Origin: a virus
DNA: 64,000 nucleotides
Reading direction: 5' to 3' (one strand)
IMG/VR virus record: IMGVR_UViG_3300008107_000029
Location: 1-64,000 of that record
The position numbers and the translations under genes are program-made. This document shows positions 19,923 through 56,532 of this stretch, one piece after another. A model generated the notes under the pieces. That model was not told where the DNA came from. It saw nothing but the letters and a program-made list of their open reading frames with translations, and made no database searches. Each line of letters starts with the position of its first letter. Position 1 is the first letter of the stretch.

Positions 19923-19950
19923 TATCCTGAGTAAGATACAAAACTGCTCA
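19923..19950 (+). ncRNA. Compact H-type pseudoknot motif, copy 1
   Basis: UAUC-CUGAGUAA-GAUA-CAAAAC-UGCUCA. Confidence 0.65.
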
Positions 19951-20107
19951 CCAGGAACTTACAAACGCAATCCGTATTCTCAAAATGACAGATGAGGAAG
20001 TTGTAAGCACAAGCACTTACAATGCTATTGCTCGTTATCTGTAATTAGATAATCGAAACAGGGACAGTTTCTAGAGTGTTCTAGTCCAATGTCGTAAGTA
20101 AGAACTC

Positions 20108-20137
20108 TACAACCTGAGCAAGTTGTGAAAAGGCTCA
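20108..20137 (+). ncRNA. Compact H-type pseudoknot motif, copy 2
   Basis: UACAAC-CUGAGCAA-GUUGUG-AAAAG-GCUCA. Confidence 0.65.
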
Positions 20138-20166
20138 ACCCCAAACTACTACCAAAGGAAAAACAA

Positions 20167-20337
20167 ATGACACTATCAGGATACACTTACCAAGTTGGAG
20201 ATTTATTTACAACAAGTAAGACAGGCGTTACAGGCAGAATTTATTCTTTTGCACCTGTAAGCAAAACAGTTACTCGTGTTGGATTACAATTAGCAAACGG
20301 ATCAAAACGATTTGCAATGGTAAAAACATCTAAGTAA
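20167..20337 (+). CDS. Small SH3/KOW-like beta-barrel protein, paralog of 19741-19899
   Basis: SD AAAGGA; TYQVGDLFTTSKTGVTGRI...TRVGL..NGSKRF. Confidence 0.65.
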   Translation: MTLSGYTYQVGDLFTTSKTGVTGRIYSFAPVSKTVTRVGLQLANGSKRFAMVKTSK

Positions 20338-20459
20338 AATTATTTGGGAGTGGGTTTCAAACTAACCTAGGTGCCTCCTCCCAAATATTTCGCCAGGCTG
20401 ATTAGGGCGATTATAAAAATACTATAGAGCACAGTTCACACCAACTGCAAGAGGTGTAA

Positions 20460-20487
20460 ATTCCTGAGCAAGAATCAAAAAGGCTCA
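20460..20487 (+). ncRNA. Compact H-type pseudoknot motif, copy 3
   Basis: AUUC-CUGAGCAA-GAAU-CAAAAAG-GCUCA. Confidence 0.65.
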
Positions 20488-20907
20488 CTTTGCAATTGTC
20501 GACAATTTGCCGCCCCCACGCAGTCGGGCGTGTCGTAATTACGAGGATGTGAGATTTATCACAGGAATTTGAGTTGACACGGCTGAGTTATTTTGCTATA
20601 ATTGCAAGTATGAATCACAAGACTAAAAAGGATAAAGAAGCCTTACGTAGGCTTATGGAGTTGCGTAGGTGCAATGCCTCATCCCCTATAAAGTCTAAGA
20701 AAGTTTATTCTAGAAAGAATAAGCATAAATGTCAGTCCCCCCTGATATAATCTAAACCTACCAAGTTAGAAAGAAGGCCCCTATGGAATACAACGATGAG
20801 TTCTATGATAAACTCTATGAGCAAGGCTATGAGGTTATGAATGATATAAACTCTTGCTATTGCACTAACTACTCTATCTGCACTGAATGCACTAAGGGGT
20901 ATAACTA

Positions 20908-21346
20908 ATGACTAAACTACTACGCTCTAAAGATAGGAAAGTAACTAATGCCGTCTCCCCTAATGGAAAAACAGCAACAATTGCCAACACTTTCGGTCTA
21001 CCTGCTGGAAAGGCTTGTTCAATTTTGGGTCTATACTCGTGTAAAGTCTGCAGCCCTCATCCTAAAAGATATTCCTAATCTATCTCTCTACTATTCTACT
21101 GATAGTGAGAATGTTGAGATTGGAAAAGATTTATCTAATGAGCACAATATCAAGTTAGCCTACCTTGCTAAGACATTTGACATAGGCAAGGCAGATATGC
21201 TAGAATTGGTCAACAAGACAGCCGTCCGTTGTCCTGAAAACAATAAGAAAATTCCACTAATATCTACGAATGGTAGTGCGTGTGTCTCGTGTGGGCAATG
21301 CGTATTCCAACGCAATGATATTTTATTTAGTGCAACTAAGAAATAG
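20908..21346 (+). pseudogene. Gp88-like (radical-SAM-related) phage gene broken by an internal deletion/frameshift
   Basis: N-half MTKLLRSKDRK...NTFGLPAGKA (20908, stops at 21078) and C-half QFWVYTR...NLSLYYSTD...CPE...CVSCGQC (to 21346) are in different frames; junction near 21015. Confidence 0.55.
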
Positions 21347-21732
21347 GAGCAACGTGTATCAACTAACAATTGGCACTTTAATTTTATTTATGATTTGTTT
21401 TTGGCTAGCAGAAAAGTTATTCTAATGATAAATCAAAAATGTTTAAACTGTCCTCAGCCTATGTATCTTGAAGGTTACATTGAAGATGATATTCCGTTAT
21501 GTCATTCTTGCTATAGTGATCACACTCTAGTTAAATATGGATACACGGATGAAGATTTTTTAATGGGCACCTGCTAGATCGGGCCAGCCGCCCCTATCCA
21601 CAGGTTATCCACAGGTTTACGAGGATGTGATTTTTCTCACAGGAATAAATCGGACATTTCAAGGATTGGATTTGATAATGTCAGCCCGTTCTGTTATACT
21701 TGGGGTAACAACAACAGAAAGGCAATAAATAT

Positions 21733-22734
21733 ATGGCTCATTTACTAGAAGAAGGTTCAAACGGCGAAGTTGCATTTGCATCATTGCGTGAACCTGCTTG
21801 GCACAATCTTGGAACAGTGTTTCAAGATGAGGTTACAACATCAGAAATGTTAGACCTTGCACATTTGTCAAATTGGAATGTGCGTCTTGAAGATGTAATT
21901 CTACCAGACACTTACACATCTGTCAAAAACAATTTTATGGTTGTTCGCAACAATCCATTTGAAGATAACCAAAATGATGTTTTGGGAATTGTTGGAGATA
22001 GATACAATGTAGTTCAGAATGAAGATTTATTTTCATTCGGTGATTCAATTCTTGATGGTGGAGGCGTGTGGGAAACTGCTGGCTCAATCAAAAAGGGAAC
22101 AGTTGTATTTGGTGCTCTTGCATTGGATAAGACAATCACTCTTGATGCACAAGGGGCAAACGACCAGACAAAAACTTATTTGCTATTGCACACATCACAC
22201 GATGGTTCTGTGTCAATTCAAGCAAGCATCACACCTGTTCGTGTTGTCTGCCAAAATACACTAAACCTTGCATTGCGTAGTGTAAAGCAATCATTCAAAA
22301 TTCGTCATACACAATCTGCTGACGGAAAAGTTGCTGCTGCTCGTGAGGCTCTTGGAATGTCATTTGCCTATATGGACACATTTGAAAAGGAAGCACAGGC
22401 ATTGTATCAAAAGTCAATGACCGAAGCAGAATTTATCAAAATCGTAAACACCATTTACCCTAAGCCTGAAAAAGATGCAAAAGGCTCTTTCAAGAAATGG
22501 GAAAACAAAATGGTTTCATTGCAAGAAATTCTTGCATCACCTACTAATGCAAACATTCAAGGCACAGCGTGGGCAGGACTCAATGCACTCACTGAGCGTT
22601 TAGATTGGTATCGCACATCTCGTGGTGGCAACAGCGAAAACACATTTGCATCTGCATCTGGTTTTGACCCTGTTATCAACGCAGAGAAAAATAAAATTTA
22701 CCAAACTGTAAAAGCATTTGCAGCGAGTAAATAA
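21733..22734 (+). CDS. DUF932-family phage/plasmid protein
   Basis: PAWHNLG, LGIVGDRY.VVQN, WETAGSI, YLLLHTSHDGS, TPVRVVCQNTL, IRHT, GTAWAGLNALTE. Confidence 0.85.
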   Translation: MAHLLEEGSNGEVAFASLREPAWHNLGTVFQDEVTTSEMLDLAHLSNWNVRLEDVILPDTYTSVKNNFMVVRNNPFEDNQNDVLGIVGDRYNVVQNEDLFSFGDSILDGGGVWETAGSIKKGTVVFGALALDKTITLDAQGANDQTKTYLLLHTSHDGSVSIQASITPVRVVCQNTLNLALRSVKQSFKIRHTQSADGKVAAAREALGMSFAYMDTFEKEAQALYQKSMTEAEFIKIVNTIYPKPEKDAKGSFKKWENKMVSLQEILASPTNANIQGTAWAGLNALTERLDWYRTSRGGNSENTFASASGFDPVINAEKNKIYQTVKAFAASK

Positions 22735-22739
22735 AAATA

Positions 22740-22768
22740 AATTCCTGAGCAAGAATTGAAACTGCTCA
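22740..22768 (+). ncRNA. Compact H-type pseudoknot motif, copy 4
   Basis: AAUUC-CUGAGCAA-GAAUU-GAAAC-UGCUCA, 5 nt after the DUF932 stop. Confidence 0.65.
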
Positions 22769-22772
22769 CTCT

Positions 22773-22804
22773 AAATATTTATGCGTGATCGTGCATAAAT
22801 ATTT
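22773..22804 (+). terminator. Perfect hairpin after DUF932 and the pseudoknot
   Basis: AAATATTTATGC...GCATAAATATTT. Confidence 0.5.
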
Positions 22805-22913
22805 GGGGGCGGTAAAATGTGACCAACATCACACGGTTACTATTAAGTAGGATTTGAAAATGTCGCAGGAATTTGCTATAATTGCACCATAACCTAACAG
22901 AAAGAGGCCCCCT

Positions 22914-23330
22914 ATGGACCAGACGCCAGACCAGCACTATATGACACGAGAGTTTCTTGAAGGACAGATTGTTCAGTTTCAAGAAATAATCAAAAGCAAA
23001 GATGAGCACATTCAGCGTGTAACACAACGTGATTATGCAACTGCTGCAAACCTACAGACTATGCGTGATAAGATGCACGAATGGACTATGAAGGAATTAG
23101 AAGACAATGGTATCACAGAATCACAGGCAGAGGAAATTGCTGAGATTTGTGGATTCGAATTGTCTAAGGAAGTTGAAGTTGAAGTAACTGTTACTTACAA
23201 TATGACTTTGCAACTTGCTCACAATGAAGAAGCAGAAGATGTAGTAAATGACATTGACTTTGAAGCAATTTCATACGACACTGACAAAGTAAGTTGGATA
23301 TCAGCCTCAATAGATAGAATAGATATTTAG
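22914..23330 (+). CDS. Acidic hypothetical protein
   Basis: 138 aa; SD GAAAGAGG; follows the promoter at 22861. Confidence 0.7.
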   Translation: MDQTPDQHYMTREFLEGQIVQFQEIIKSKDEHIQRVTQRDYATAANLQTMRDKMHEWTMKELEDNGITESQAEEIAEICGFELSKEVEVEVTVTYNMTLQLAHNEEAEDVVNDIDFEAISYDTDKVSWISASIDRIDI

Positions 23331-23346
23331 TAGGGGGCTACTAATA

Positions 23347-23373
23347 AATCCTGAGCACGATTCAAAACTGCTC
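23347..23373 (+). ncRNA. Compact H-type pseudoknot motif, copy 5
   Basis: AAUC-CUGAGCAC-GAUU-CAAAAC-UGCUC, 4 nt before tRNA-Arg. Confidence 0.65.
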
Positions 23374-23377
23374 TTTG

Positions 23378-23449
23378 CCCCTTATAACTCAGAGGAAGAG
23401 TCAACGGTTTCTACCCGTTTGGTCGGAGGTTCGAATCCTTCTAAGGGGA
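23378..23449 (+). tRNA. tRNA-Arg(UCU)
   Basis: Acceptor CCCCTTA/TAAGGGG, D stem ACTC/GAGT, anticodon stem AACGG/CCGTT with loop TTTCTAC, T arm GGAGG-TTCGAAT-CCTTC; CCA not encoded. Confidence 0.85.
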
Positions 23450-23550
23450 CTTTACCGCCCGATGTGATATTGATCACATTGATTAAGGACGAGTTGAAAA
23501 TGTCGCAGGATTTTGGTATAATTGGATTCCACTACTACCAAAGGAATAAT

Positions 23551-23832
23551 ATGGGATATAACACTGCAGTTGACTTATCTGAAAACCTGGACCTAGAGAC
23601 GTCCCTACGTATGCACTTGCGAGGTAATCATTACCCACCCGTGCCCGTTGAAATGGTCCCTATCTGTATTGAGGCCATTGAACTGGCTAAAGAAGAACTA
23701 TGGGATGAAGAGATCCAAATGCCATTAATTAACGACTTTCAAGTTATGTATAAGAATAGACAGACTGCCCCTGTATGGGCTATAATTGAGCAACACCACT
23801 TACACGCTTGGCTAGAAGGAGAGGATGAATAA
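23551..23832 (+). CDS. Hypothetical protein
   Basis: SD AAAGGA; HLRGNHYPPVP...HHLHAWL. Confidence 0.7.
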   Translation: MGYNTAVDLSENLDLETSLRMHLRGNHYPPVPVEMVPICIEAIELAKEELWDEEIQMPLINDFQVMYKNRQTAPVWAIIEQHHLHAWLEGEDE

Positions 23833-24017
23833 TGAAACTGAGAATGACCTATACAGTTGATTACGACGTAGACAAATTACTCCCTGAAATAAAGGATTAC
23901 GTAGGTGATTACGAACTCACGTTCGAAGTCATTAAAGAATTTGTAACTGATAGATTTATCAGCCCTGACCTACTTGACAAGAGTGGTCCCCATAGTGTAA
24001 AATATACTATCCTCTAA
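23832..24017 (+). CDS. Small hypothetical protein
   Basis: TAATG coupling; SD GGAGG. Confidence 0.6.
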   Translation: MKLRMTYTVDYDVDKLLPEIKDYVGDYELTFEVIKEFVTDRFISPDLLDKSGPHSVKYTIL

Positions 24018-24033
24018 CAGAACGGAACTACCT

Positions 24034-24309
24034 ATGAATAAAGTATATGGGGTAAACGATAAAGCCCTAGCAGACCTGTCAATACCTATCCACGACTTAT
24101 TGCACGGCTATCTTAAAAATGCTATGTATGAGACAGAAACAGAACTAATTCCCTTGCTAGCCAATAGCGAAGAGATTGGGTCAGATGAAGAGTATGAAGA
24201 TACAATTCAAAGACTAGAACTCACAGGGCGTATGGACGCATATGTCCAAATCTATTCCACATTAACTAGTTTAATCTTTGAGAGAGAGGACATTATAAAT
24301 GGAAAATAA
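24034..24309 (+). CDS. Hypothetical protein
   Basis: 91-aa acidic ORF in a coupled run. Confidence 0.6.
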   Translation: MNKVYGVNDKALADLSIPIHDLLHGYLKNAMYETETELIPLLANSEEIGSDEEYEDTIQRLELTGRMDAYVQIYSTLTSLIFEREDIINGK

Positions 24310-24541
24310 TGCAGACTACCTAGAAAACCCTGAAATGTATGCAGACTACTATTCTTGCGACCTTGCTATCTCTATTACAAATATCAAGGCTAAGAATGCA
24401 CACCACGCAGAAGCCGTTATGCAAACCTTCATAGATGAGATTGCTAAGGTAATGGACGATGAAGTTAGTTGGGACGATGCCCAATGGGGTATTATCACTA
24501 ACAAGTTTGTGCCTGAGTTACAGTGTTGGGTAGAAGAATGA
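24299..24541 (+). CDS. Hypothetical protein
   Basis: 80-aa acidic ORF; SD GAGGA. Confidence 0.6.
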   Translation: MENNADYLENPEMYADYYSCDLAISITNIKAKNAHHAEAVMQTFIDEIAKVMDDEVSWDDAQWGIITNKFVPELQCWVEE

Positions 24542-24695
24542 GCACTACCTATAAGCCCTACACAATTAATGAACTCGTAAATGAAATCTACGAGGATAAC
24601 TACTCACACTTTGAGTTTATGGAAAATATGAACGGTGGAGACTGTGATTGTTCCCTTCATACTACTATGAATACTATTGTCAAGTATTGGGGTGA

Positions 24696-24935
24696 ATGAT
24701 GGAATCAGCATACATTGATCGCACCACCCAACTTGTAGAGTATATGAAGTTACATCTACTTAGTCTAGAGCAAGACTCTGCCTACCTTGAAAAGCAGATG
24801 GATTCTTATTCTAACTATGAGGATGATGACTACAGAACTCTAGAGATAGAGGATATCTCTACCAACGGTCAGATTATTGCTACTGCCCATTTATTGTCAG
24901 TGGCTGCTGATATACTAGGCGTCCCTACCAAATAA
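24696..24935 (+). CDS. Hypothetical protein
   Basis: 79-aa ORF; SD GGGGTG. Confidence 0.55.
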   Translation: MMESAYIDRTTQLVEYMKLHLLSLEQDSAYLEKQMDSYSNYEDDDYRTLEIEDISTNGQIIATAHLLSVAADILGVPTK

Positions 24936-25090
24936 AAGGAGTAATATGAAAATCCCTAAGCACATAATGGAAGAACTAGAGGACCAAGCAAGCCAAATCA
25001 TTTACTTTGAGGCAGCAATGTCAAGTGAAGATAAGGCCACCAAGGCTGTCTTAAAGCGTCTTGTTGAAATCTATAAGGCAGGTGCAGAAA

Positions 25091-25540
25091 GTGTCAAGTA
25101 AGTTTATCGAAATGGAATTCGATGAGTGGTGTGACACTTACAAGCCTATTACTAATCATCTAGATTCAAATGCCTCCTTTGATGGAGCAATGTTTGAGAC
25201 CTATGGTGATGAAGTAGAGTTCGTCAAACAACAGCCTGAGAATCATATCTGGATGTATGGGGATGGAGACGACGGTGGTTCCTATGTATGGAATGGTTGG
25301 CATTTCATTAATAGGATAGGATACTTTATAACTGAAGTGCCGTGCCCACCTGATACAGATATCCAAATCAGAGTTAGCCACAATTGGTTCTACTGTGAGA
25401 ACTGTAGTGCTGAGTTTGAGGACCCTGATAATCTAATCAGAGATGCATTTGATGAACACGATTTGGAGAAATGCACACAATGTGCTACCATTGAAGAACT
25501 AACCCTAGTAGGATTGGAGCCTGCCAATGCCAATGTATAA
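25091..25540 (+). CDS. Hypothetical protein with a C-terminal zinc ribbon
   Basis: FETYG, GWHFINRIGYFITEVP, CENC...CTQC; GTG start inferred. Confidence 0.65.
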   Translation: MSSKFIEMEFDEWCDTYKPITNHLDSNASFDGAMFETYGDEVEFVKQQPENHIWMYGDGDDGGSYVWNGWHFINRIGYFITEVPCPPDTDIQIRVSHNWFYCENCSAEFEDPDNLIRDAFDEHDLEKCTQCATIEELTLVGLEPANANV

Positions 25541-25709
25541 AATAACTGCCACACGAGAAGTCAATTATGATTTTGAGATTGAGGCAGACACTGAAGATGA
25601 AGCCATCGCAGAGATTGAAAGAATCGAACGTGATGAGGATGTTGAAATATATGCCATTGATTGGTATCCGTTAGAAATTACTACTATCGACGAGGAAGAA
25701 GAAGAATAA
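25527..25709 (+). CDS. Small acidic hypothetical protein
   Basis: FEIEADTEDEAI motif common in phage microproteins. Confidence 0.6.
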   Translation: MPMYKITATREVNYDFEIEADTEDEAIAEIERIERDEDVEIYAIDWYPLEITTIDEEEEE

Positions 25710-26077
25710 TGGGAGCACGTATTAACTTTGTATTTAAAGACTCAGAGAAGGGTCCATTGGTTGTCTTATACAGCCATTGGGGCCAGACTGAATGGCAGAC
25801 GGATATTGCAGCAGCCCTGCAGCATTCTAAGCCACGCTGGCAAGATTCTTCATATGGGACACGTATGATGATTAGTTATTTGATCAAGGATTCTATTATG
25901 GACGAGACTGGTTTTGGTATCTATGCAATTGACCAAGACGGTTACGACCTAGGAGAGCAAACAGTCATCATTGATTTCATTACCAAGACTGTAACTGACA
26001 ATGTATCTGTGTCCTGGGATGCATTTATTAACGCTTATGCGATAGGGGAAGAGCCAGACCTTTTGGTAGGGGTCTAG
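25709..26077 (+). CDS. Hypothetical protein
   Basis: MGARINF...LYSHWG...RWQDSSYGTRMMI; TAATG coupling. Confidence 0.7.
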   Translation: MGARINFVFKDSEKGPLVVLYSHWGQTEWQTDIAAALQHSKPRWQDSSYGTRMMISYLIKDSIMDETGFGIYAIDQDGYDLGEQTVIIDFITKTVTDNVSVSWDAFINAYAIGEEPDLLVGV

Positions 26078-26151
26078 GCCACCAGTGGGGGGTGGCTGTG
26101 TTACATTGACAGCCACTCTCCCATTTGGTATAATGGAGAAAAGGAGAGTAT

Positions 26152-26681: not shown

Positions 26682-26714
26682 GAGGGGGCGGTCAGAGAAG
26701 TTATTTAATAACTC

Positions 26715-27213: not shown

Positions 27214-27268
27214 CAAGTGTTTATGTGTATTTTTTTATATATTTTTATATAGAAATATAGGGATAATA

Positions 27269-31989: not shown

Positions 31990-32001
31990 TGTCTACCTTT
32001 T

Positions 32002-32825: not shown

Positions 32826-33856
32826 GCTGATCCCCTTGCGTGTGGTTTGGATTCGTTTAAACTTGCTATAGATACTGTATCATATTCGGAGTCTTCTTGC
32901 AAATCTGACAGGCTGTGAGATCCAGAATAAGAACACCCTGAGCCTAGGCCTAATCTAAATTTATTTAGACTATCTTCAACTGCCCCCTTGTATGGTACCT
33001 TAGTAGATATACCCTCAGAACCTGCAGAATAGCCTCTCCAGGCCTCCTGAGCCTCACTTGAAGCCATCCCACGGAAAGACTTAAAGCCATCAATAATGTC
33101 TCCTGGAGCCTCGTCGTGTCCTGCCAAAGCAGATCCTAGCATAACTGCAGATGCCCCTGCTGCAAAAGACTTAACCATATCTCCTGAGTTCCTAATTCCA
33201 CCATCTGCAATGATTCCCAGATTAGATACTGATTCATCATTAAAGCAATCTAAGATGGACTGTAGGGTTGGCCTTCCGTGCCCAGTTACAATCCTAGTAG
33301 TGCAGGCTGCACCACCACCAATTCCAACACGAACAGAGTCTGCACCCATCTGCAATAGCATCTTGTATCCTTCTGCTGTTGAAACATTGCCAGCCATAAT
33401 GTGTGTAGCAGGATTTAAAACTGCTCTCAATTTCTTTACGGCTTCTAGTGCATAATCACTGTGACCATTTGCTGTATCAACACATATTACTTTTGCTCCA
33501 GCCTCTTCTAATTCTAAGGCGTGTGACTCATAGTATCCAGTAGCAGCAACTGCTGCACCAACTACAAATCCCATTTCGGAAACAAGTTTAACTTGTCTTA
33601 CCTGCTCTACCTCATCCATATACCTATGGATTATACCTAGACCACCAAGCCTAGACATATGAGAAGCCATCTCCCATTCAGTAACAGTGTCCATAGGTGC
33701 AGAGATAATTGGAGTAGACAATGTGATCTGTGCTTCTGGCCTAACTCCAATAGTCATAGATAGGTCTACGTCTGATCTACTTTTAACACCTGACTGTTGT
33801 GGCACCAAAAGAATATCATCAAAGCATAGTGCCTTAACGTTGTTATACTTTCTCAT
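32822..33856 (-). CDS. IMP dehydrogenase/GMP reductase family protein (no CBS subdomain)
   Basis: FDDILLVP, SAPMDTVT, GNV, VGIGGGAACTTR, IIADGGIR, FRGMAS. Confidence 0.9.
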   Translation of the reverse strand: MRKYNNVKALCFDDILLVPQQSGVKSRSDVDLSMTIGVRPEAQITLSTPIISAPMDTVTEWEMASHMSRLGGLGIIHRYMDEVEQVRQVKLVSEMGFVVGAAVAATGYYESHALELEEAGAKVICVDTANGHSDYALEAVKKLRAVLNPATHIMAGNVSTAEGYKMLLQMGADSVRVGIGGGAACTTRIVTGHGRPTLQSILDCFNDESVSNLGIIADGGIRNSGDMVKSFAAGASAVMLGSALAGHDEAPGDIIDGFKSFRGMASSEAQEAWRGYSAGSEGISTKVPYKGAVEDSLNKFRLGLGSGCSYSGSHSLSDLQEDSEYDTVSIASLNESKPHARGSA

Positions 33857-43379: not shown

Positions 43380-43396
43380 GTGTCTCCCCTAACCTA

Positions 43397-44047: not shown

Positions 44048-44050
44048 CTG

Positions 44051-50872: not shown

Positions 50873-50896
50873 GTTTCTATTATACCTCTTTCGTTA

Positions 50897-53854
50897 TTAT
50901 GCACCCAACCACCATGAGTTGGTTAGTGATCCTACTGATGCTGCACCTGCTGTTTGAACTTCAAAGACAATTCTATCACTGTCGTCATCATAAACTGCCA
51001 CAAGGTTTACGTGATTATCGTGTACTAAAGAAGGTGCTACAAGGTCTGTAACCACTTCTGTTTGGGTATTTCCAATTGGAGTGTATCCAAGAGCAGATGT
51101 TATATCTAATAATCCTACAGTTACGTTACCATTGACTGCTGGTCTAGTTCCAAACTGAATTAAGTCTACTGAATCTGGAACACTAAGAAGAAGTTGGTTT
51201 GGACCATCATCATATGTGACTGTAACGTTTGTATGGTTAGTATGATTTAGTAATGGTTCAACCCAATCTTGAATTTCTTCTTGTGTTTTTGGTGTTGGAA
51301 TCTTAATTTGTATCTGTGGTAATCCAGTAATTGGATCCTCTGCTACATAATCTACTACAACGTTTTCATGATTAACGTGGTCCAGTGTGTCATAAATGAA
51401 TGCTGATGTTTGTAATCCATTAAATGCAACTGGGATTGTAAGTTCAATATCTCCGTGTGCTGATTGAGTGATTGTTGCTGTACCTTCAACATCTCCATCA
51501 ATGGTAAATGTAACTTCGGCATCTCTTACGGCAAGAGTTCCAGTGTTGGTAAGGTCATCGTATACAAAGTTTAATCCAAATAGATTTAATTGTCCATCTA
51601 AGAAGTTAAAGATTTCATCATCTACTGCTTCTTGAAAATCTGTAATGTCAGTTGATACGTGGTCGTGTCCTAAGTATGTTAAAGCCTTCCATACAGTTCC
51701 ACTCTTTATATACAAGTCTCCAGAGTCTGCTACATATCCAAAAGCACCAGAGTCTGCACCAGTTGGTAATGCTGCTTGATTTGCATACCCTTGAGTAACA
51801 ATATTTTCTATAGCAAACAAAACTGGGTCTGAAGATATGTTGGTTGGTCCACCTAGATAAAAATAATTTTCTTGTAAACTTGGAGCAATTTCTACCTGCC
51901 CAGGTCCATACAAATATATGGCTCCATCAAATGTTGCTATAGCACTTGATAGTTTAACAAGAATTCCCATTCTCTGTGTAACAAAGTTATATTGTTGTGG
52001 GCTTATTGACGGAACTCCGTTTAGCCCAACGTATAGTTCTGATCCTACAACTGCACCAGTAATTTCAAAGGTGGATGCTGCTATTAATCCTTGGCTTGTT
52101 ATGTATCCATTACTTGATGCTGGAATGGTTTCTTCTGCTATTCCTATTGATGGCATTGTTGATGGAGTTCCAGCACTTGCTAAAACAACATTTGGTACAG
52201 TCGATCCACTAGCATATCCACTAATACTAACAAAACTGCCTGCGTTAATATCGGTAGTGCCGTTATTTCTAACATAAATTTTTGTCTTTGGTGCAAAGTT
52301 AACCTCAGCCTGGTAGATTAATGGGTCTCCAGCAGTTGTTGGCAAAGCCATTGCTGAAGTTATAGATGGATGGGAGGGTGTTCCAAAATAAGAAGAAACT
52401 CTACTGTCAACTCTTGGGTTGGTATACCATAAATTTGTTGCTGTTCCAGTTTCTGATACATCGTCTGTGTCAAGAACTACTGTACCAATAAAACCATTTA
52501 CTGAGTCTACTTGGCTAAGAACTTTATATGTATCTCCACCGTCTAAACTCCAAGCAAATTGCTGGTTTGCTTCGCTCCAAGCAAGGATTGCATTAGTAAG
52601 ATCTCCTCTTGCAACTTCAATACCTGACTTTAAAGTACTTGCTGGAGTGCCAGTTTGTGCTGAGTTAATAAGAATAGTTGTATCTTCTGTTGTAATAGTT
52701 CCTGCATTAAATATAGTTTCAGTACCAAGTACACTTAAGTTACCAGTTACTGTTAAATTATTTGGAATGGTTACATCTGTTGCCAAGCCTACAGTGGTAA
52801 TTCCATTTGTTGTAGTTGCTACTATTTGATTTGTAGTTCCATTGATTGCTAACACACCAGTGTTAGAAATTGTTAATCCGTTAGTTGCTGAATCGTATGT
52901 GGTTGATATACCAGTCTTTGTTGCTCCATTAATTAACGCCCCTGCAGAATCTTTTGCACGGTCATCTGTAAACCATAGGTTTGTTGTTGCTGGATCTCCG
53001 TCATTGCCTTCAGCAATATCTCCAGTTGTTATAGTTACAACTCCTGTTTCGCCATTAACGCTTAGAACATTACCAGCACCAGTCAAAACTATTCTGTTGT
53101 TTACGTCATCGTATGATGCTGTAACATTTGTATGTCCAGCATGGTTAAGAAGTGGTGCAGCAGAATCCTGTACTGCTTCAGTAAAGTCTGTTACTTGAGT
53201 AGAAGGAATTGCAATGTCGACATTTGATGCACTTGTAATACGACCATCAACATCTACTGCAAATTGTGATACTGAGTTAGCATCTCCGTATGTTGCTGGT
53301 GTAACTCCAGTGTCTGAAAGATCAATAGTAATTGTGGTATTACCAAGATTGGTCATTGTTGCTGATCCAGTTGCATCTCCTGCAATACTAATTACTGGAT
53401 CGTTAACATTAAATGTTAATGTATTTAAGATGTCGTCATATGATACTGTTAGACCAGAATGTGTGGCTGCTACAACCATAGCCTGTGCAGCATCCTGTAC
53501 AGCCTCTGTAAAGTCTGTTATGTTGGTAGATACGTGGTTGTGTGAGTTATCTGCAACTGTTGTTGTAATGGTTGCGTTAGCAAGGTTTGTTACTGTTCCA
53601 GTTCCACTTACATCACCATCTAGGGTTAATGTAAAGTCACCTACATTGAAGTTTAATTTTCCAGTTGTATCGTCATAAGTAACGTCAATACCAGATTCGG
53701 TATTTGTAGTTACCATAGCACCAACTAGGTCTTGAATATCTTCTGCAACGTTTGTAATATCTGTAACTGTGTGCGTGTGCGATGGATACGCTAACGCCAC
53801 ATCTACTTGAACGACATCATTTGTTCCTTCGTCTACTATTACATTAATTGCCAT
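50897..53854 (-). CDS. Long tail fibre/adhesin protein
   Basis: Repeats ITDF.EAVQD, VTYDD..N, VLSVNG.TG.V, SGIEVARGD; Thr/Asp-rich. Confidence 0.75.
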   Translation of the reverse strand: MAINVIVDEGTNDVVQVDVALAYPSHTHTVTDITNVAEDIQDLVGAMVTTNTESGIDVTYDDTTGKLNFNVGDFTLTLDGDVSGTGTVTNLANATITTTVADNSHNHVSTNITDFTEAVQDAAQAMVVAATHSGLTVSYDDILNTLTFNVNDPVISIAGDATGSATMTNLGNTTITIDLSDTGVTPATYGDANSVSQFAVDVDGRITSASNVDIAIPSTQVTDFTEAVQDSAAPLLNHAGHTNVTASYDDVNNRIVLTGAGNVLSVNGETGVVTITTGDIAEGNDGDPATTNLWFTDDRAKDSAGALINGATKTGISTTYDSATNGLTISNTGVLAINGTTNQIVATTTNGITTVGLATDVTIPNNLTVTGNLSVLGTETIFNAGTITTEDTTILINSAQTGTPASTLKSGIEVARGDLTNAILAWSEANQQFAWSLDGGDTYKVLSQVDSVNGFIGTVVLDTDDVSETGTATNLWYTNPRVDSRVSSYFGTPSHPSITSAMALPTTAGDPLIYQAEVNFAPKTKIYVRNNGTTDINAGSFVSISGYASGSTVPNVVLASAGTPSTMPSIGIAEETIPASSNGYITSQGLIAASTFEITGAVVGSELYVGLNGVPSISPQQYNFVTQRMGILVKLSSAIATFDGAIYLYGPGQVEIAPSLQENYFYLGGPTNISSDPVLFAIENIVTQGYANQAALPTGADSGAFGYVADSGDLYIKSGTVWKALTYLGHDHVSTDITDFQEAVDDEIFNFLDGQLNLFGLNFVYDDLTNTGTLAVRDAEVTFTIDGDVEGTATITQSAHGDIELTIPVAFNGLQTSAFIYDTLDHVNHENVVVDYVAEDPITGLPQIQIKIPTPKTQEEIQDWVEPLLNHTNHTNVTVTYDDGPNQLLLSVPDSVDLIQFGTRPAVNGNVTVGLLDITSALGYTPIGNTQTEVVTDLVAPSLVHDNHVNLVAVYDDDSDRIVFEVQTAGAASVGSLTNSWWLGA

Positions 53855-53855
53855 A

Positions 53856-54548
53856 TTATGTCAATTGCCCCCTAGTTGTATCTGTTGAAGCAGTTACGCT
53901 ATATGTAATGTCTTCAACAACATCAATTTCTCCCTTTAAAATAGTTTGAACAGTCCAGTGATCGTCAAATGCATTAAGTGCATCGTCACCAAAGTCTGTT
54001 AAGTTTGTCTTTCTTGCAATTTCAAGATCATATACTGCATTGTCTGGTAGTCTTTTGCTTACACCATCTGGCAGGAACATATGAATCTTTCCAGCAGTAA
54101 TTTCAGATGCTTTGTTTCCAATCTGGAACTCTGCCTTTACGCTAGAGGTTACTGTTCCAGTTGCATTTTCCTGAGTGACAACGCTACCAGTTGACTGATA
54201 TGTTATAGTGGTTGCAGTGACTGAAGTAATAACTCTAGTTCCATCCCATCCTACACCAACACCTGCTACAGTAATAGTCTGATTAGTATCAAAGTTATGG
54301 TTTTGGCTTAATGTTAGGGTTGCGTATGTTGTTCCACCAACTAATTCTCTTTGTTTTTGTGTGACTGTTGCAGTTGAAGTGAAGGTCAAAGGTTGTAGAT
54401 CTGGTCCGTAAATCTCTGCTTTAATGCTATAATTTGTTAAATTGATGGCTGTGCCACCATTATCTTTTACTGTTGCGATAGCGTAATAAGTATCACCACG
54501 GTAAAGCGTGATATTTAATGTTCCTGGAGTATTATTGACGCTTGCCAT
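53856..54548 (-). CDS. Baseplate/fibre-attachment protein (BppU-like N-domain with an insert)
   Basis: LNITLYRGDT...INLTNY..KAEI ... VYDLEI...ILKGEIDV. Confidence 0.6.
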   Translation of the reverse strand: MASVNNTPGTLNITLYRGDTYYAIATVKDNGGTAINLTNYSIKAEIYGPDLQPLTFTSTATVTQKQRELVGGTTYATLTLSQNHNFDTNQTITVAGVGVGWDGTRVITSVTATTITYQSTGSVVTQENATGTVTSSVKAEFQIGNKASEITAGKIHMFLPDGVSKRLPDNAVYDLEIARKTNLTDFGDDALNAFDDHWTVQTILKGEIDVVEDITYSVTASTDTTRGQLT

Positions 54549-54565
54549 GATTACATTATATCCTA

Positions 54566-55018
54566 CTAATGATTCTTAGAACTAGGAATAATCGCACCCT
54601 TCCACATTGATTGTTTGATCGGAACACAGTTTGGAACTTGGCGTCCGTTCTTTTCTTTCATACCTACTTGCTTATAACCAGACCAACATGCTTTTGTAAG
54701 ATTATCCCATTTATCTTCATCTTCATTGTCTGACTCGTATAATTCTTCTGACTTATCCATGCTGTGATCTGATTCAATTTTAACTGCATCTTTGTACATC
54801 ATTCCAATGCTAAAAGCAGTTGGCTTCCATGTGCCATCTTTTTCAATATAAATTCTAACTGACATTGCTGGATTGTCTGGAGGCATAGACTCAATAGCAA
54901 ACTCTGTTCCAGGTGTTCCTAGGGTTCCACCCTCAATCATAATGTGTTCAATCATGCCATGGACCATACCCTCTGTGGTTTTACCCATTACCATGTCGCC
55001 TTCTTTTAGTGTTAGCAT
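54566..55018 (-). CDS. Tudor-like domain protein, related to the insert in the prohead protease
   Basis: EGDMVM...EG..HG...PDNPAMSVRIY...WKPT; C-terminal CWSGYKQVGMK..GRQVPNCVP. Confidence 0.6.
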   Translation of the reverse strand: MLTLKEGDMVMGKTTEGMVHGMIEHIMIEGGTLGTPGTEFAIESMPPDNPAMSVRIYIEKDGTWKPTAFSIGMMYKDAVKIESDHSMDKSEELYESDNEDEDKWDNLTKACWSGYKQVGMKEKNGRQVPNCVPIKQSMWKGAIIPSSKNH

Positions 55019-55046
55019 ACTTTCCTCCTAGACCATTTTATCATAA

Positions 55047-55367
55047 TTAACCTAATGCTGAACGCATATTCTGTAGCAACTCACGCTCAAACGGATCTAG
55101 GTCATATAGGTCCATATTTAAACCTTTGTCCGTTAACCTAAAGATCCACTCTGCTGTATCTGACATAGAAACATCAACCATATCCTTGGTCCACAGTTCA
55201 AACATCATCATTGAAATGTCTTCAATATAAGAATGGTATAGTTCTGGTGCAATCTCAGCACACTTCTCAGTGATGCTAAACCTATACTCACCGTCATCGT
55301 TTAGAGCAACTATTTCAATTGCTCCAGCCTCAATGAGGTACTGGATGTAGAGATCCTCTTCTTCCAT
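55047..55367 (-). CDS. Hypothetical acidic protein
   Basis: 106-aa ORF. Confidence 0.65.
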   Translation of the reverse strand: MEEEDLYIQYLIEAGAIEIVALNDDGEYRFSITEKCAEIAPELYHSYIEDISMMMFELWTKDMVDVSMSDTAEWIFRLTDKGLNMDLYDLDPFERELLQNMRSALG

Positions 55368-55641
55368 TGCTACGCTTCACTACCTTTCTTCTATCTTTGA
55401 CCTGCCTAACAACCTTTCCATTTTTATCTGGAACTTGATCCGCTTTCCAGTTGTTACACTGTCTGTGGGTCAATCTCAAGTTGTCAATATCCCAAGTGCC
55501 ACCTTTTGATAATGGAATCCAGTGATCTATTGTGGCTGCATCTTTGTCAAAGGGAAGTTGACAAATAAAGCATAGATCTCCGTCTCTGCTTATTAGATAT
55601 TCCAACCGTTCTTTTTTAGTTGCAAATCCTGTATATTCCAT
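55330..55641 (-). CDS. HNH endonuclease
   Basis: RDG..CFIC...TIDHWIPLSKGG....NLRLTHRQCNNWK. Confidence 0.88.
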   Translation of the reverse strand: MEYTGFATKKERLEYLISRDGDLCFICQLPFDKDAATIDHWIPLSKGGTWDIDNLRLTHRQCNNWKADQVPDKNGKVVRQVKDRRKVVKRSNGRRGSLHPVPH

Positions 55642-55650
55642 ACAAGATAA

Positions 55651-55815
55651 TTATACATCTATAAGTTTAAGAACGAACATGCATGGGTCTCCACCATCTT
55701 CCCATTCTTGTTGCTCTTCCTCCGTCATATATGGATCTCCATCGTGTGTATTACAAAAGGCTTCAGACACCCATCCCTTTTCTTGCCCGTAGGCTACCCA
55801 CTCATGAATGTCCAT
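55651..55815 (-). CDS. Small acidic protein (not in ORF track)
   Basis: MDIHEWVAYGQEKGWVSEAFCNTHDG...GGDPC; TAATG coupling. Confidence 0.6.
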   Translation of the reverse strand: MDIHEWVAYGQEKGWVSEAFCNTHDGDPYMTEEEQQEWEDGGDPCMFVLKLIDV

Positions 55816-56075
55816 TACAGACCTAACTCTTTAATAAATCTTGGCTTTGGCATAGCACCAATAACAAACTTAACGATCTCGCCGTCTTCTTCAAGAATGT
55901 ATGTTGGTACTGACTTGATGTTGTATCTTTGAACCATCTCTGCATCAGCATCAATGTCAATCTTTACAATCTTTAAATCTGGGTACTCTTTTTCTAGTTC
56001 GTCAATTACTGGGTTCATCATCTTGCATGGTCCACACCACTCTGCCCAGAAGTCCAACAGGACTCTTTCTTTCAT
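55815..56075 (-). CDS. trxA: Thioredoxin
   Basis: DFWAEWCGPCK, KIDID, I.SVPT. Confidence 0.92.
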   Translation of the reverse strand: MKERVLLDFWAEWCGPCKMMNPVIDELEKEYPDLKIVKIDIDADAEMVQRYNIKSVPTYILEEDGEIVKFVIGAMPKPRFIKELGL

Positions 56076-56113
56076 AATAACCTCCTAAGTTATAGTTATA
56101 TTATACCTACTAG

Positions 56114-56187
56114 CGATACTAAGGGGACTTGAACCCCTGACCTCCACCGTGACAGGGTGGCGTTCTAACCAACTGAACTATAGTACC
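56114..56187 (-). tRNA. tRNA-Asp(GUC)
   Basis: GGTACTA/TAGTATC acceptor, GTTC/GAAC D stem, CCACC-CTGTCAC-GGTGG anticodon arm, AGGGG-TTCAAGT-CCCCT T arm. Confidence 0.92.
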
Positions 56188-56483
56188 TTGCTACGATTAT
56201 ATGTTCTCATCCTGTGACAGTTAGAACATACTATTTCGCACTTTGCTATTTCTTCTAACAACACTTCCATAGGAGTTGCTGTCTTAACCATCTCAGAAAT
56301 GTTAGCAACCTTATCTCTAAGATGATCAAAATCTAAAACTGGTGGTGGGTAGTCAACGTTGCAATCAACACACGTTGGGTGATCTAGTTTGTATTGCCAG
56401 ACAAACTTTCTTCTTTTATTTTTTCTTTGCTCATTTCGGTCAACATAAATATCTTTTGACTTAATGTATTTAAGTTCTGGCAT
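56178..56483 (-). CDS. HNH-type endonuclease
   Basis: CVDC...LDFDH...EIAKCEIVCSNCHRMRT. Confidence 0.8.
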   Translation of the reverse strand: MPELKYIKSKDIYVDRNEQRKNKRRKFVWQYKLDHPTCVDCNVDYPPPVLDFDHLRDKVANISEMVKTATPMEVLLEEIAKCEIVCSNCHRMRTYNRSKVL

Positions 56484-56505
56484 TTATTCCCTATCTAATT
56501 ATAAA

Positions 56506-56532
56506 GAGCAGTTTTGTGTCGTACTCAGGACA
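56506..56532 (-). ncRNA. Compact H-type pseudoknot motif, copy 6
   Basis: UGUC-CUGAGUAC-GACA-CAAAAC-UGCUC on the minus strand, upstream of HNH/tRNA-Asp. Confidence 0.6.

Follow-up and report, generated by a model that had tools for sequence, protein, structure and literature searches.

The stretch of viral DNA analysed here, hereafter the window, spans positions 1 to 64,000 of the record IMGVR_UViG_3300008107_000029 and carries six copies of a short element. All six had been reported in a first-pass annotation, and both a pattern search and a covariance model recover them. The pattern CCTGAGYAMG-N8-16-GCTC matches exactly six times in the window (chance 0.01), at 19926, 20113, 20463, 22744 and 23350 on the plus strand and at 56506-56529 on the minus strand; none of 100 shuffles of the window reached six matches, and the whole 96.8-kb record holds no further copies. 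The covariance model likewise finds only these six, its next-best match (15.9 bits at 33393) being rejected as a chance partial match. The copies are separated by 185 to 2,280 nt, with one copy 33 kb off. As the annotation had claimed, all six lie outside plausible open reading frames and share the strand of their neighbouring genes, and all six pairs of stem-1 arms read as it described; its coordinates also hold, except for copy 2, whose 5-bp stem begins at 20109 rather than 20108.

The surroundings of the copies differ. Copy 1 (19923-19949, plus strand; stem 1 UAUC/GAUA, loop CUGAGUAA, linker CAAAACU, stem-2 3' arm GCUC; 41.5 bits) lies 23 nt past the stop of the reading frame at 19651-19899, and a hairpin (UUUAGC-ACUAC-GCUAAA, 19901-19917, plus) ends 5 nt 5' of it. 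Copy 2 (20109-20136, plus; ACAAC/GUUGU, linker GAAAAG, GCUC; 40.2 bits) is followed after 30 nt by the ATG (20167) of a family-1 small-protein gene, an arrangement retained in relatives at 29-35 nt. Copy 3 (20460-20486, plus; AUUC/GAAU, linker CAAAAAG, GCUC; 42.2 bits) is followed about 85 nt downstream by a 12/12 promoter at 20574-20602. Copy 4 (22740-22767, plus; AAUUC/GAAUU, linker GAAACU, GCUC; 47.7 bits) follows a DUF932 gene (21733-22734, plus; Pfam PF06067, E 6.6e-55), its 4-bp stem core beginning 6 nt past the stop codon. The motif stands 6-9 nt after the DUF932 stop in about 22 of 25 related loci, with varying content downstream, and in the related Streptomyces phage Jay2Jay the corresponding site is occupied by an ordinary hairpin. 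Copy 5 (23347-23373, plus; AAUC/GAUU, loop CUGAGCAC, linker CAAAACU, GCUC; 38.9 bits) lies 3 nt past the end of a hairpin (UAGUAG-GGGG-CUACUA, 23328-23343, plus) that also precedes the pseudoknot in several relatives, and directly 5' of tRNA-Arg(UCU) (23378-23450, plus), leaving the 4-nt gap that had been noted between GCUC and the tRNA. Copies 3-5 are located at ends of transcription units without a canonical terminator.

Copy 6 (56506-56532, minus; UGUC/GACA, loop CUGAGUAC, linker CAAAACU, GCUC; 45.4 bits) heads an HNH/tRNA-Asp unit, as previously proposed: it is followed by a 101-aa HNH-like reading frame (56178-56483, minus; the D-H...C-x-x-C-H motif was seen in the translation only) and then by tRNA-Asp(GUC) (56113-56187, minus), with which the 3' end of the reading frame shares 10 nt. 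Relatives place the pseudoknot 4-26 nt 5' of tRNA-Asp(GUC). The copy adjoins a consensus sigma-70-type promoter with a perfect TTGACA-17-TATAAT (56533-56561, minus) and sits immediately 3' of the TATAAT (56538-56533); the predicted transcription start is the first G of the loop GAG. The overlap with an expected promoter start that the annotation had flagged holds for this copy, but such overlap occurs in 7 of 334 instances, which is background, and is not general to the family.

Sequence comparison supports the reading that the six sites are copies of a compact, unnamed, phage-borne H-type RNA pseudoknot of about 29 nt. Stem 1 (4-5 bp), free in sequence, is closed by a C-G pair, and CU forms loop 1. 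In stem 2, which is 4-6 bp long, (U)GAGC(A) usually pairs with (U)GCUC(A). An A and a second nucleotide, which may be U, A, C or G, make up the junction, and loop 3 reads NNAAAC(U) before a G-poor tail (7% G versus 22% elsewhere) whose first nucleotide is A in 69%. The unpaired CU, A and AAAC are invariant. Stem 2 ends in a G:C pair in 245 of 334 instances and in an A:U pair in 74, and the nucleotide 5' of this terminal pair is U throughout. Homologous copies retain stem-1 pairing: across 96 distinct instances the variable pairs are formed in 96, 95 and 81 cases with up to six pair types, giving a covariation score of 0.37 versus 0.11 in shuffles. Stem 2 had been inferred in the annotation from invariant sequence, and compensatory changes found in the entire IMG/VR collection now support it. 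When loci were scanned without requiring stem-2 pairing, all 113 candidates with the consensus loop paired 4 of 4, and 16 of 64 with a changed loop were fully compensated (~1 expected). The doubly compensated combination AGGC/GCCU has at least 124 matches in IMG/VR, 114 with stem 1 intact, whereas the uncompensated combinations have 27 (13 intact) and 46 (5 intact); GGAC/GUCC, likewise doubly compensated, has 121 matches, 104 with stem 1 intact, whereas none of 120 GGAC/GCUC matches has four or more stem-1 pairs. Changes are two-sided in 9 of 11 pairs. Both helices of the proposed pseudoknot covary, with uncompensated stem-2 combinations rare or absent. Predicted nearest-neighbour stability is modest (mean -1.1 kcal/mol for stem 1 and -6.2 kcal/mol for stem 2).

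The motif occurs in hundreds of IMG/VR contigs and, with a near-invariant loop, in phages of at least four bacterial phyla (host groups Actinobacteria, Cyanobacteria, Alphaproteobacteria and Firmicutes) and in a Microviridae genome. Cultured carriers, among them Labelle, Molivia, ParMal1, GR1 and S-RIM4, infect Mycobacterium, Arthrobacter, Paracoccus, Synechococcus, Nostoc, Microcystis, Bacillus and Geobacillus; carriers include T7-like, T4-like, siphovirus and Microviridae phages, with and without their own RNA polymerase, and some hold multiple copies. We regard the motif as phage-borne because matches to the same pattern in bacterial and archaeal genomes pair only at chance level. The heavily sampled gamma-proteobacterial phages contributed none of ~16 true BLAST hits, from few queries and one stem sequence, and E. 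coli genomes gave no motif matches, which is a weak test. The annotation had recognised no sequence match, and indeed no family in Rfam 15 matches even at E<=10, nor did we find a publication describing the motif.

Placement relative to genes is regular. In 221 of 237 cases the motif points the same way as the genes. Two copies lie 0-4 nt past the upstream stop, 29 lie at 5 nt and another 29 at 6 nt, with numbers declining beyond, and this spacing is tighter than that to the downstream start codon, which usually lies at least 19 nt away and clusters at 19-37 nt. Pseudoknots stand 2-26 nt 5' of tRNAs, 23 of them at 4-26 nt, and about 10% of copies precede a tRNA (the arrangement recurs in Arthrobacter phage Molivia and Nostoc phage NMeng1), while none of 123 tRNAs has the motif within 100 nt on its 3' side. 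A stable hairpin ends 0-5 nt 5' of the motif in ~40% of instances (mean z -1.14 versus -0.1 and -0.4 in controls). Genes downstream are mutually unrelated, some being tRNAs, and genes for small SH3/KOW-like proteins adjoin several copies. The distance to promoters is not fixed. In relatives, the isolated copy lies directly 5' of an extended -10 promoter for a leaderless gene and so cannot be a 5' UTR element there. A strand-independent DNA site can be ruled out from the co-orientation, the ribosome-footprint distances from stop codons and the G-U pairs, for which the opposite strand would carry A-C mismatches. The claim of an unnamed H-type RNA pseudoknot would have fallen if homologues had lost stem-1 pairing, if a known Rfam family had matched or if the motif had behaved as such a DNA site, and it survives all three.

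What the element does is far less certain. Our preferred interpretation, to which we give a probability of only about 0.3 in the absence of RNA-end data, is a cistron-boundary element that is compatible with read-through and that, once the transcript has been processed, sets or shields the 3' end of the RNA lying upstream. Transcribed within polycistronic phage mRNAs, the element would fold in the ribosome-free gap past the stop codon and act, we infer, post-transcriptionally. An endonuclease would cut downstream of the pseudoknot: RNase P where a tRNA follows, and elsewhere a single-strand-specific endonuclease in the G-poor tail. The folded pseudoknot, often with a hairpin just 5' of it, would then set and shield the 3' end of the upstream message, and RNA polymerase, unlike at a terminator hairpin, would continue into whatever gene or tRNA follows. 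The invariant loop nucleotides may hold a base-triple-stabilised fold, which would be needed because stem 1 alone is thermodynamically marginal. Read-through is suggested because the downstream tRNAs and Shine-Dalgarno-led reading frames are too close to the motif to have their own promoters, and a tie to the upstream RNA end is inferred from the placements by tRNAs, DUF932 stops, terminator-less unit ends and hairpins, from the isolated copy before a leaderless gene's promoter in relatives and from the ordinary hairpin that replaces the motif in Jay2Jay. The G-poor tail also fits the preference of mycobacterial RNase E for single-stranded, C-rich sites (PMC10641625). Against a boundary role, such modest helices are predicted to be weak as a passive exonuclease block without tertiary contacts or a partner, and a mere roadblock would not seem to need a loop conserved across phyla, which points instead to recognition by a universal factor, catalysis or a ligand. 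Moreover, RN-CNU sites directly 3' of the motif, though enriched, occur in only 11% of instances, and the regular 19-37 nt before the start codon in many copies equally fits a role for the downstream gene. Of the functions listed in the first-pass annotation, the best-fitting is still a processing signal or nuclease block, while an anti-toxin (ToxI) mimic and preQ1-I membership find no support.

A universal partner suited to such varied carriers, from Actinobacteria, Cyanobacteria, Alphaproteobacteria and Firmicutes to Microviridae, could be a tRNA-processing enzyme. Stems 2 and 1 may stack into a ~10-11-bp helix mimicking a tRNA acceptor arm, in the manner of the TYMV tRNA-like structure with its pseudoknotted acceptor arm, to be cut by RNase P in loop 1 between U and G or by RNase Z after the first A of the tail. 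If so, phage mRNAs would be punctuated as mitochondrial transcripts are by tRNAs. In bacterial pre-tRNAs U, G:C and A are the commonest identities at positions -1, +1:72 and 73, and the helix end of the motif resembles them (U always, G:C in 245 of 334, A in 69%); the motif is closely associated with real tRNA genes, and the upstream hairpins could shield the upstream product after the cut. We nevertheless consider this mimicry unlikely, as a CCA signature is missing (the motif is followed by ACC in 12.3%, versus 12.9% expected from column frequencies), nothing corresponds to a T-loop, neither the tRNA nor the Tymo_tRNA-like model of Rfam matches, and a cut within the pseudoknot would be redundant directly before a tRNA that RNase P processes anyway; in copy 6 the would-be cleavage site coincides with the predicted transcription start, but this is not general (7 of 334). 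Two further protein-based readings are both distinctly doubtful. In one, an analogue in bacteria of viral xrRNAs, a triplex pseudoknot would halt RNase J arriving from an upstream cut and insulate the downstream cistron or pre-tRNA from decay begun upstream. A compact pseudoknot whose A-rich loop 3 lies in the minor groove of stem 1 resists 5'-to-3' unwinding, as in frameshifting pseudoknots, the motif precedes reading frames (by 19-37 nt) and tRNAs, and we take the hosts of all cultured carriers found to possess RNase J, in line with the lack of true hits in gamma-proteobacterial phages and E. coli. That host pattern, however, comes from few BLAST queries with one stem sequence; a block would be most useful just 3' of a tRNA, at the new 5' end, where none of the 123 tRNAs has the motif within 100 nt; spacing is tighter to the upstream stop than to the downstream start; and copies before a promoter and leaderless gene shield little downstream. 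In the other, the motif would give ribosomal protein S1, the 30S subunit or some other universal RNA-binding factor a place to dock, serving the downstream cistron as standby site or enhancer, or else it would block post-termination ribosome sliding. S1-type binding sequences resemble the G-poor, pyrimidine- and A-rich tail of the motif, invariant unpaired nucleotides are typical of recognition surfaces, SH3/KOW-like genes adjoin several copies, and ribosome-footprint spacing holds on both sides (at least 5 nt past the stop, the 19-37 nt cluster before the start), yet the copies before tRNAs, or before promoters and leaderless genes, serve no translation start, and no obvious phage protein partner is shared among T7-like, T4-like, siphovirus and Microviridae carriers.

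Explanations that need no protein partner, or no RNA at all, are rated lower still. A very small self-cleaving ribozyme could process polycistronic phage transcripts without a host factor, cleavage being inferred only. The distribution across unrelated phages and hosts, intergenic, co-oriented with genes and sometimes multi-copy, is like that of small ribozymes; covarying helices with invariant junction and loop nucleotides also speak for one, and the pistol ribozyme has a P1-pseudoknot core resembling the layout of stem 1, stem 2 and A-rich linker. At ~29 nt, however, the motif is far smaller than every natural self-cleaving class known, has no counterpart to the substrate helices of pistol, matches no Rfam ribozyme family and has no identified conserved candidate cleavage dinucleotide outside the fold, making catalysis quite improbable. 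We think it very improbable that the element is a ligand-binding aptamer, whether a riboswitch-like sensor or an RNA sponge. Marginal helices with invariant unpaired nucleotides are typical of ligand-stabilised folds, and preQ1-I has the same layout (short P1, pyrimidine loop 1, short P2, A-rich loop 3 ending ACU). But the Rfam PreQ1 model finds nothing at E<=10, there is no expression platform (the Shine-Dalgarno sequence is 10-25 nt off), the downstream genes are unrelated and include tRNAs, the IMGVR_UViG_3300008107_000029 phage lacks TGT and QueC genes, and the junction nucleotide that would pair with the ligand varies. A DNA-level signal (phage promoter, repressor stoperator or single-strand initiation hairpin) is scarcely credible and largely ruled out by covariation. 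Cluster-A mycobacteriophage stoperators are dispersed, strand-specific and intergenic, as is the motif, the packaged Microviridae strand is the sense strand, and a promoter overlaps copy 6; two interleaved helices nevertheless covary, often through G-U pairs possible only in the transcribed sense strand, promoter distance is not fixed, ribosome footprints at stop and start codons are respected, and carriers both have and lack their own RNA polymerase.

Several known systems share features with the motif. The luteovirus-type (BWYV/PEMV) -1 frameshifting pseudoknots are also compact H-type folds of about 28 nt, in which stem 1 has 4-5 bp, loop 1 has 1-2 nt and starts with C, stem 2 is short and is joined through a junction nucleotide, and loop 3 is A-rich and 6-7 nt long; they too sit 5-8 nt 3' of the codon in the ribosomal A site. 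The motif, of unrelated sequence and in DNA phages, instead follows stop codons rather than slippery heptamers, and no extended alternative frame comes after it but often a tRNA or promoter. PreQ1-I (RF00522), like the motif among the smallest natural pseudoknots, shares the order and sizes of P1, L1, P2 and A-rich L3 and the AAAACU tail motif, but the motif has no nearby queuosine genes, is multi-copy and stands 5' of tRNAs. TYMV-type acceptor pseudoknots have the same topology, a hairpin loop paired with a 3'-proximal strand and stacked helices, and as in RNase P punctuation by tRNA or mascRNA the motif lies at transcript boundaries beside real tRNAs; it differs in loop lengths and in lacking CCA and any equivalent of the T or anticodon arm. 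ToxI-type III antitoxins are likewise small protein-free RNA pseudoknots tied to phage biology, but they form tandem 36-nt arrays beside toxN, whereas the motif is dispersed and dissimilar in sequence, and no toxN gene was found. The dispersed regulatory repeats of phage early regions (T4-type PeSL cassettes, mycobacteriophage SAS/ESAS and stoperators) are, like the motif, short repeats that stand where genes meet, run in the direction of transcription and cluster among small early reading frames; they are lineage-specific and mostly DNA-level or simple stem-loops, whereas the motif has pseudoknot covariation and crosses phage families. T7 RNase III sites and REP hairpins are also intercistronic structures in polycistronic mRNAs, which set ends and differential stability without stopping transcription, but those are long hairpins of one phage or host, while the motif is a tiny pseudoknot whose sequence is kept across unrelated phages and bacterial phyla.

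All six pseudoknot copies claimed by the first-pass annotation were present on direct reading of the sequence, five on the plus strand (copies 1-5, starting at 19923, 20109, 20460, 22740 and 23347) and one on the minus strand (copy 6, 56506-56532). The pattern CCTGAGYAMG-N8-16-GCTC matched six times in the window versus 0.01 times expected from dinucleotide-preserving shuffles, and no further copy of it occurred elsewhere in the 96.8-kb IMG/VR record. Since the heptamer CTGAGYA alone was not enriched (16 matches versus 19.6 expected), the signal belongs to the whole composite and to no single word. Copies 1-5 follow one another at spacings of 187, 350, 2,281 and 606 nt, with the sixth 33 kb away on the other strand. 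Copies 3, 4 and 5 lie at transcription-unit ends, ~85-120 nt ahead of the next strong promoter, and a terminator scan found no canonical terminator between these copies and that promoter.

The anatomy of the element is compact: a C-G-closed stem 1 of 4-5 bp, a loop 1 of C and U (the U able to pair with the A after stem 2), a stem 2 of four core pairs plus A-U (consensus GAGC/GCUC, 5' arm/3' arm), a single free junction nucleotide, and a loop 3 of NNAAAC(U). When loop 1 was left unconstrained, 334 of 387 candidates had CU there and the others did not rise above noise; position 7 of the loop is A and position 8 varies freely. The nucleotide before the stem-1 3' arm was U in 157 instances, A in 140, C in 51 and G in 9. 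Apart from a downstream A and a G-poor stretch, the flanks show no sequence conservation: the first tail nucleotide is A in 69%, followed by pyrimidine- and A-rich sequence with 7% G versus 22% elsewhere. The pairing of stem 1 despite its varying sequence, first noted among the six copies, was kept in homologous ones, where the variable pairs formed in 96, 95 and 81 of 96 distinct instances with up to six pair types. The stem-1 covariation score was 0.37 versus 0.11 for shuffles, and pairing was lost when the 3' partners were slid. Nearest-neighbour energies were low (means of -1.1 kcal/mol for stem 1 alone and -6.2 kcal/mol for stem 2); with stems this weak, the conserved fold must rely on tertiary contacts or a partner. 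By analogy with luteoviral and preQ1 pseudoknots, we infer that the loop-3 adenines, placed in the stem-1 groove, are the obvious candidate for such contacts.

Stem 2 was beyond the reach of our first scans, in which GAGY and GCUC were fixed, and three independent tests of it were added. Among candidates from the fetched loci for which only stem 1, CU, A and an AAAC-type linker were required, those with the consensus loop formed all four stem-2 pairs in 113 of 113 cases, and those with a changed loop were fully compensated in 16 of 64 (versus ~1 expected, and 1 of 59 in a reversed-sequence control). The compensated variant AGGC/GCCU gave at least 124 matches across IMG/VR, 114 with stem 1 intact (at least three pairs), and the listed matches with at least four stem-1 pairs carried 26 different stem-1 arms; two uncompensated combinations gave 27 matches (13 intact) and 46 matches (5 intact). 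Likewise, stem 1 was intact in 104 of 121 IMG/VR matches to GGAC/GUCC, whereas none of the 120 matches to GGAC/GCUC, which are dominated by one unrelated repeated sequence, had four or more stem-1 pairs. Changes on both sides were seen in 9 of 11 pairs of a 121-row alignment, and compensated variants share genomic positions with consensus copies, such as the one immediately ahead of tRNA-Asp. The control pattern CTGGACA-N6-8-AAACTGCTC matched one repeated sequence (CTGGACAACAGAGCAAACTGCTC) 68 times (loci L553-L672), mostly in isolate-derived prophage records; this repeat lacks stem 1, is unrelated to the motif and probably represents a conserved gene segment.

In IMG/VR, a stricter version of the pattern found at least 113 loci. 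At least three further stem-1 pairs beyond the fixed C-G, in many different sequences, were formed in 94 of the 116 viral-contig matches listed, versus only 11 of the 120 matches listed for the same pattern in bacterial and archaeal genomes (596 Gb), the latter being near the ~5% chance expectation. The motif is therefore real and phage-borne, and a chance repeat is ruled out by the shuffles and the bacterial-genome control. Complete relatives (~110 kb) carry 2-6 copies per genome, clustered in a small-ORF region with one isolated copy. A single genome can also mix stem-2 sequences (L018, which is IMGVR_UViG_3300042448_000816, and two further loci, L067 and L076); L018 contains GAGC/GCUC, GAGC/GCUU, GGGU/ACCC and GGAC/GUCC.

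The host of this phage is inferred to be probably an actinobacterium, because its portal and DUF932 proteins are most similar to those of Streptomyces BE-cluster phages (54% and 59% identity, respectively), and because leaderless starts and GlxR-like boxes occur in the genome. Consensus or extended -10 promoters followed by an ATG 7 nt on (window 20574-20620 and 22854-22900; also L244 and L245) imply leaderless mRNAs, and TGTGA-N6-TCACA boxes lie just upstream of these promoters. The phage G+C content is only ~38-41%. Comparing DNA of the window region with cultured phages, for both close and remote similarity, recovered only the conserved DUF932 gene. Streptomyces phage Jay2Jay, which by portal and DUF932 is one of the closest cultured relatives, does not carry the motif, and its DUF932 gene is followed by a plain hairpin.

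Cultured carriers, found by short BLAST queries and thus a small, BLAST-limited sample, have hosts among the Actinobacteria, Cyanobacteria, Alphaproteobacteria and Firmicutes, which refutes a link to actinobacterial hosts only. The motif lies 24-29 nt before the next ATG in Paracoccus phages ParMal1 and ParKuw1 (Autographiviridae), Mycobacterium phage Labelle (Patiencevirus) and Cyanophage S-RIM4 (Kyanoviridae). It stands after SSB and 3 nt before tRNA-Gly in Arthrobacter phage Molivia (Amigovirus), 5 nt before a tRNA in Nostoc phage NMeng1 (Autographiviridae), and, among Caudoviricetes, 172 nt past the terminase gene of Microcystis phage Mwe-JY13, 6 nt past the holin stop of Geobacillus phage GR1 (stem 2 AAGC/GCUU) and in an intergenic position in Bacillus phage Edson. 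A pig-gut Microviridae genome carries it with stem 2 GGAC/GUCC. In cultured carriers the motif was always on the sense strand and intergenic wherever neighbours were annotated, starting 6-11 nt past the upstream stop codon in 6 of 10. None of the ~16 true BLAST hits was to a gamma-proteobacterial phage, though such phages dominate the collection, and no motif was found in E. coli genomes, a weak test at that database size. Given the breadth of carriers, either the RNA acts alone or its reader must be universal, or close to universal. Since some carriers use their own RNA polymerase, its function is most likely post-transcriptional.

Among 237 unique instances, 221 are co-oriented with the surrounding ORFs. 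Measured back to the closest stop codon that ends a long open frame, the spacing drops off abruptly below 5 nt: two instances lie at 0-4 nt, compared with 29 at 5 nt, another 29 at 6 nt and a tail beyond. For a ribosome that has a stop codon in its A site, a spacer of 5 nt places the opening pair of stem 1 at about +12, where the mRNA enters the ribosomal channel; thus, a terminating ribosome need not unfold the element. Downstream, the next start codon clusters at 19-37 nt, approximately the upstream reach of an initiating 30S subunit. This ribosome-footprint spacing, together with two-helix covariation and common G-U pairs that are possible only on the sense strand, refutes a strand-independent DNA site, the outcome that would have undone the RNA interpretation, and in practice excludes a DNA-level role.

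Gene order adds a further asymmetry. The motif lies 4-26 nt upstream of a tRNA in 23 instances, 17 of which concern tRNA-Asp (27 such genes in the loci), and within 100 nt downstream of none of 123 tRNAs. In the window, the 4-nt gap between copy 5 and tRNA-Arg (23378-23450, plus strand) holds as described, and copy 6 does stand ahead of tRNA-Asp (56113-56187, minus strand), behind a short HNH-like ORF (56178-56483, minus strand) whose 3' end overlaps the tRNA by 10 nt. This ORF looks like an inserted free-standing homing endonuclease gene, and in relatives the pseudoknot directly precedes tRNA-Asp. The motif also follows the DUF932 stop codon by 6-9 nt in ~22 of 25 loci, regardless of what comes next; copy 4 stands behind the DUF932 gene (21733-22734, plus strand). 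The overlap with a promoter reported for copy 6 is correct for that copy and is a one-off, not a family trait. Of four isolated copies examined in relatives, two immediately precede an extended -10 promoter for a leaderless gene and cannot be 5'-UTR elements of that gene.

Stable hairpins end 0-5 nt upstream of ~40% of instances. Upstream of copy 5, the hairpin TAGTAG-GGGG-CTACTA (23328-23343, plus strand) begins at the stop codon of a 138-aa ORF, and its sequence is kept in several relatives (L031, L043, L069, L017 and L030), always just upstream of a pseudoknot copy. Long near-perfect hairpins at 22775-22806 (AAATATTTATGCG...GTGCATAAATATTT) and 20345-20390 (TTTGGGAGTGG...CCTCCTCCCAAA), both on the plus strand and without a U-tract, share intergenic regions with copies 4 and 3, respectively. 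Pseudoknot copies also flank two paralogous small-protein genes (~52-60 aa; 19741-19899 and 20167-20337, plus strand) with homologues in ~29 loci (e.g., L014:1621-1788) and the consensus M-T-x5-Y-x-V-G-D-L-F-T-T-x-K-S-x-V-T-G...R-W-T-T. AlphaFold (22-sequence alignment) predicted a confident all-beta, SH3/KOW/Tudor-like barrel (pLDDT 88) resembling the eS4 KOW domain, the eIF5A N-domain and the UvrD Tudor domain (TM 0.67-0.71, weak E of ~0.05). On this model the protein may bind nucleic acid or RNA polymerase. As the structural matches are weak and the protein is missing from most motif carriers, its tie to the motif is only a lead.

The motif occurs in three contexts (between ORFs, between an ORF and a tRNA, and between an ORF and a promoter), and their shared part is the upstream stop codon, which favors a cistron-boundary element serving the upstream RNA. 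We tentatively propose, with a probability of roughly 0.3 and with function not shown, that the element defines or shields the upstream 3' end while allowing read-through. RNA polymerase would read on past the motif, and the transcript would be cut downstream of it; RNase P would do this at tRNAs, and elsewhere an endonuclease would attack the G-poor single-stranded tail. The fold would then set and shield the new 3' end, with the upstream hairpin adding protection. Mycobacterial RNase E is reported to prefer C-rich single strands (PMC10641625), and the motif tail fits this preference. The 23:0 tRNA asymmetry, the tight stop-codon coupling, the DUF932 synteny and the copies at unit ends fit a boundary element, while a passive block fits poorly with helices of only modest stability and with a sequence kept so strictly across phyla.

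Several other explanations carry real weight. One is that RNase P cuts the element as a mimic of a tRNA end, consistent with a U before a G:C-closed helix followed by A; against this, there is no CCA. An acceptor-like NCCA end was rejected since ACC was not enriched (12.3% versus 12.9% expected from the columns), and tRNA and Tymo_tRNA-like covariance models had no match over the motif at E<=10. RNase J is common to the host groups of the cultured carriers, and a block to this enzyme is a serious rival; no Rfam xrRNA family matched. A very small ribozyme would need no partner, and hammerhead, twister, twister-sister, pistol, hatchet and HDV-like models had no match in the window or in 14 motif-rich loci. 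A docking site for the ribosome or a factor must be weighed as well, with a reader that would have to be nearly universal. It is doubtful, though conceivable, that the motif represents a new functional RNA class that works across bacterial phyla without phage-specific partners, whether as a self-cleaving ribozyme smaller than any other in nature, as the first counterpart of viral exoribonuclease-resistant RNAs (xrRNAs) in bacteria or phages, or as a minimal tRNA-end mimic, and provides portable punctuation of polycistronic RNA in many phage lineages.

Transcriptional signals were considered and rejected. A U-run follows within 14 nt in 23% of instances (TTTT in 32 of 141) versus 5% in controls, yet U-tracts remain a minority, the helices are weak and the terminator scan found none at the copies. 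What excludes an efficient intrinsic (Rho-independent) terminator is that tRNAs and Shine-Dalgarno-led ORFs follow so closely that no promoter would fit in between. Flanks without information and -10-like hexamers that are not enriched speak against a conserved upstream promoter. Copies 5 and 6 read UGCUCUUU, as a boxA/nut-like site might, but most copies read GCUCA, and GCUC itself covaries.

A ~29-nt RNA with invariant loops and two covarying helices is thus found in hundreds of phage sequences, crossing T7-like and T4-like phages, siphoviruses and Microviridae with hosts spanning four or more bacterial phyla. An RNA so small yet so widespread is usually a device that works by itself or a substrate for universal machinery. 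Once known, its function could reveal how phages define the ends of their RNAs and adjust expression between neighboring genes and tRNAs, and engineered operons might gain from the motif a tiny, portable part with which to control RNA processing or stability. It is carried by several host-phage pairs that are cultured and non-pathogenic, making these ideas directly testable at the bench.

That the motif matches no known family, as first suggested, was borne out by Rfam 15, which gave none at gathering thresholds or at E<=10, only tRNAs and chance hits. A literature search by sequence and topic found no description of it, and a 2023 catalogue of ~10,000 viral candidate RNAs (PMC10690425) could include it. 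The preQ1-I aptamer shares the H-type pseudoknot and A-rich 3' linker, but has a conserved junction cytidine that pairs with the ligand, whereas the junction nucleotide here is free. PreQ1-I also sits in the 5' UTR of queuosine synthesis or transport genes, while the motif precedes unrelated small ORFs, an SNase-like gene, tRNAs and promoters. PreQ1 (RF00522) had no match at gathering, nor at E<=10 over stretches with all six copies, and a queuosine link was rejected on the absence of TGT and QueC genes from this phage genome. A riboswitch is therefore unlikely, given also the lack of an expression platform. ToxI is a tandem array of ~36-nt repeats, whereas copies of the motif are dispersed; the ToxN family (PF13958) had no match in this genome, and control genomes gave none either. 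Pseudoknots for -1 frameshifting lie 5-8 nt past a slippery heptamer with a -1-frame ORF, while the motif instead follows stop codons; this role is rejected by copy 5 and 23 instances that precede tRNAs, and by another in-frame stop two codons on at copy 4. The nearest architectures are the luteoviral frameshifting pseudoknots and the preQ1-I aptamer, and the nearest contexts are intercistronic stabilizer structures and tRNA-type punctuation, yet the motif fails the defining features of each. It is a new RNA motif of a known structural kind, and its mechanism may possibly be new as well.
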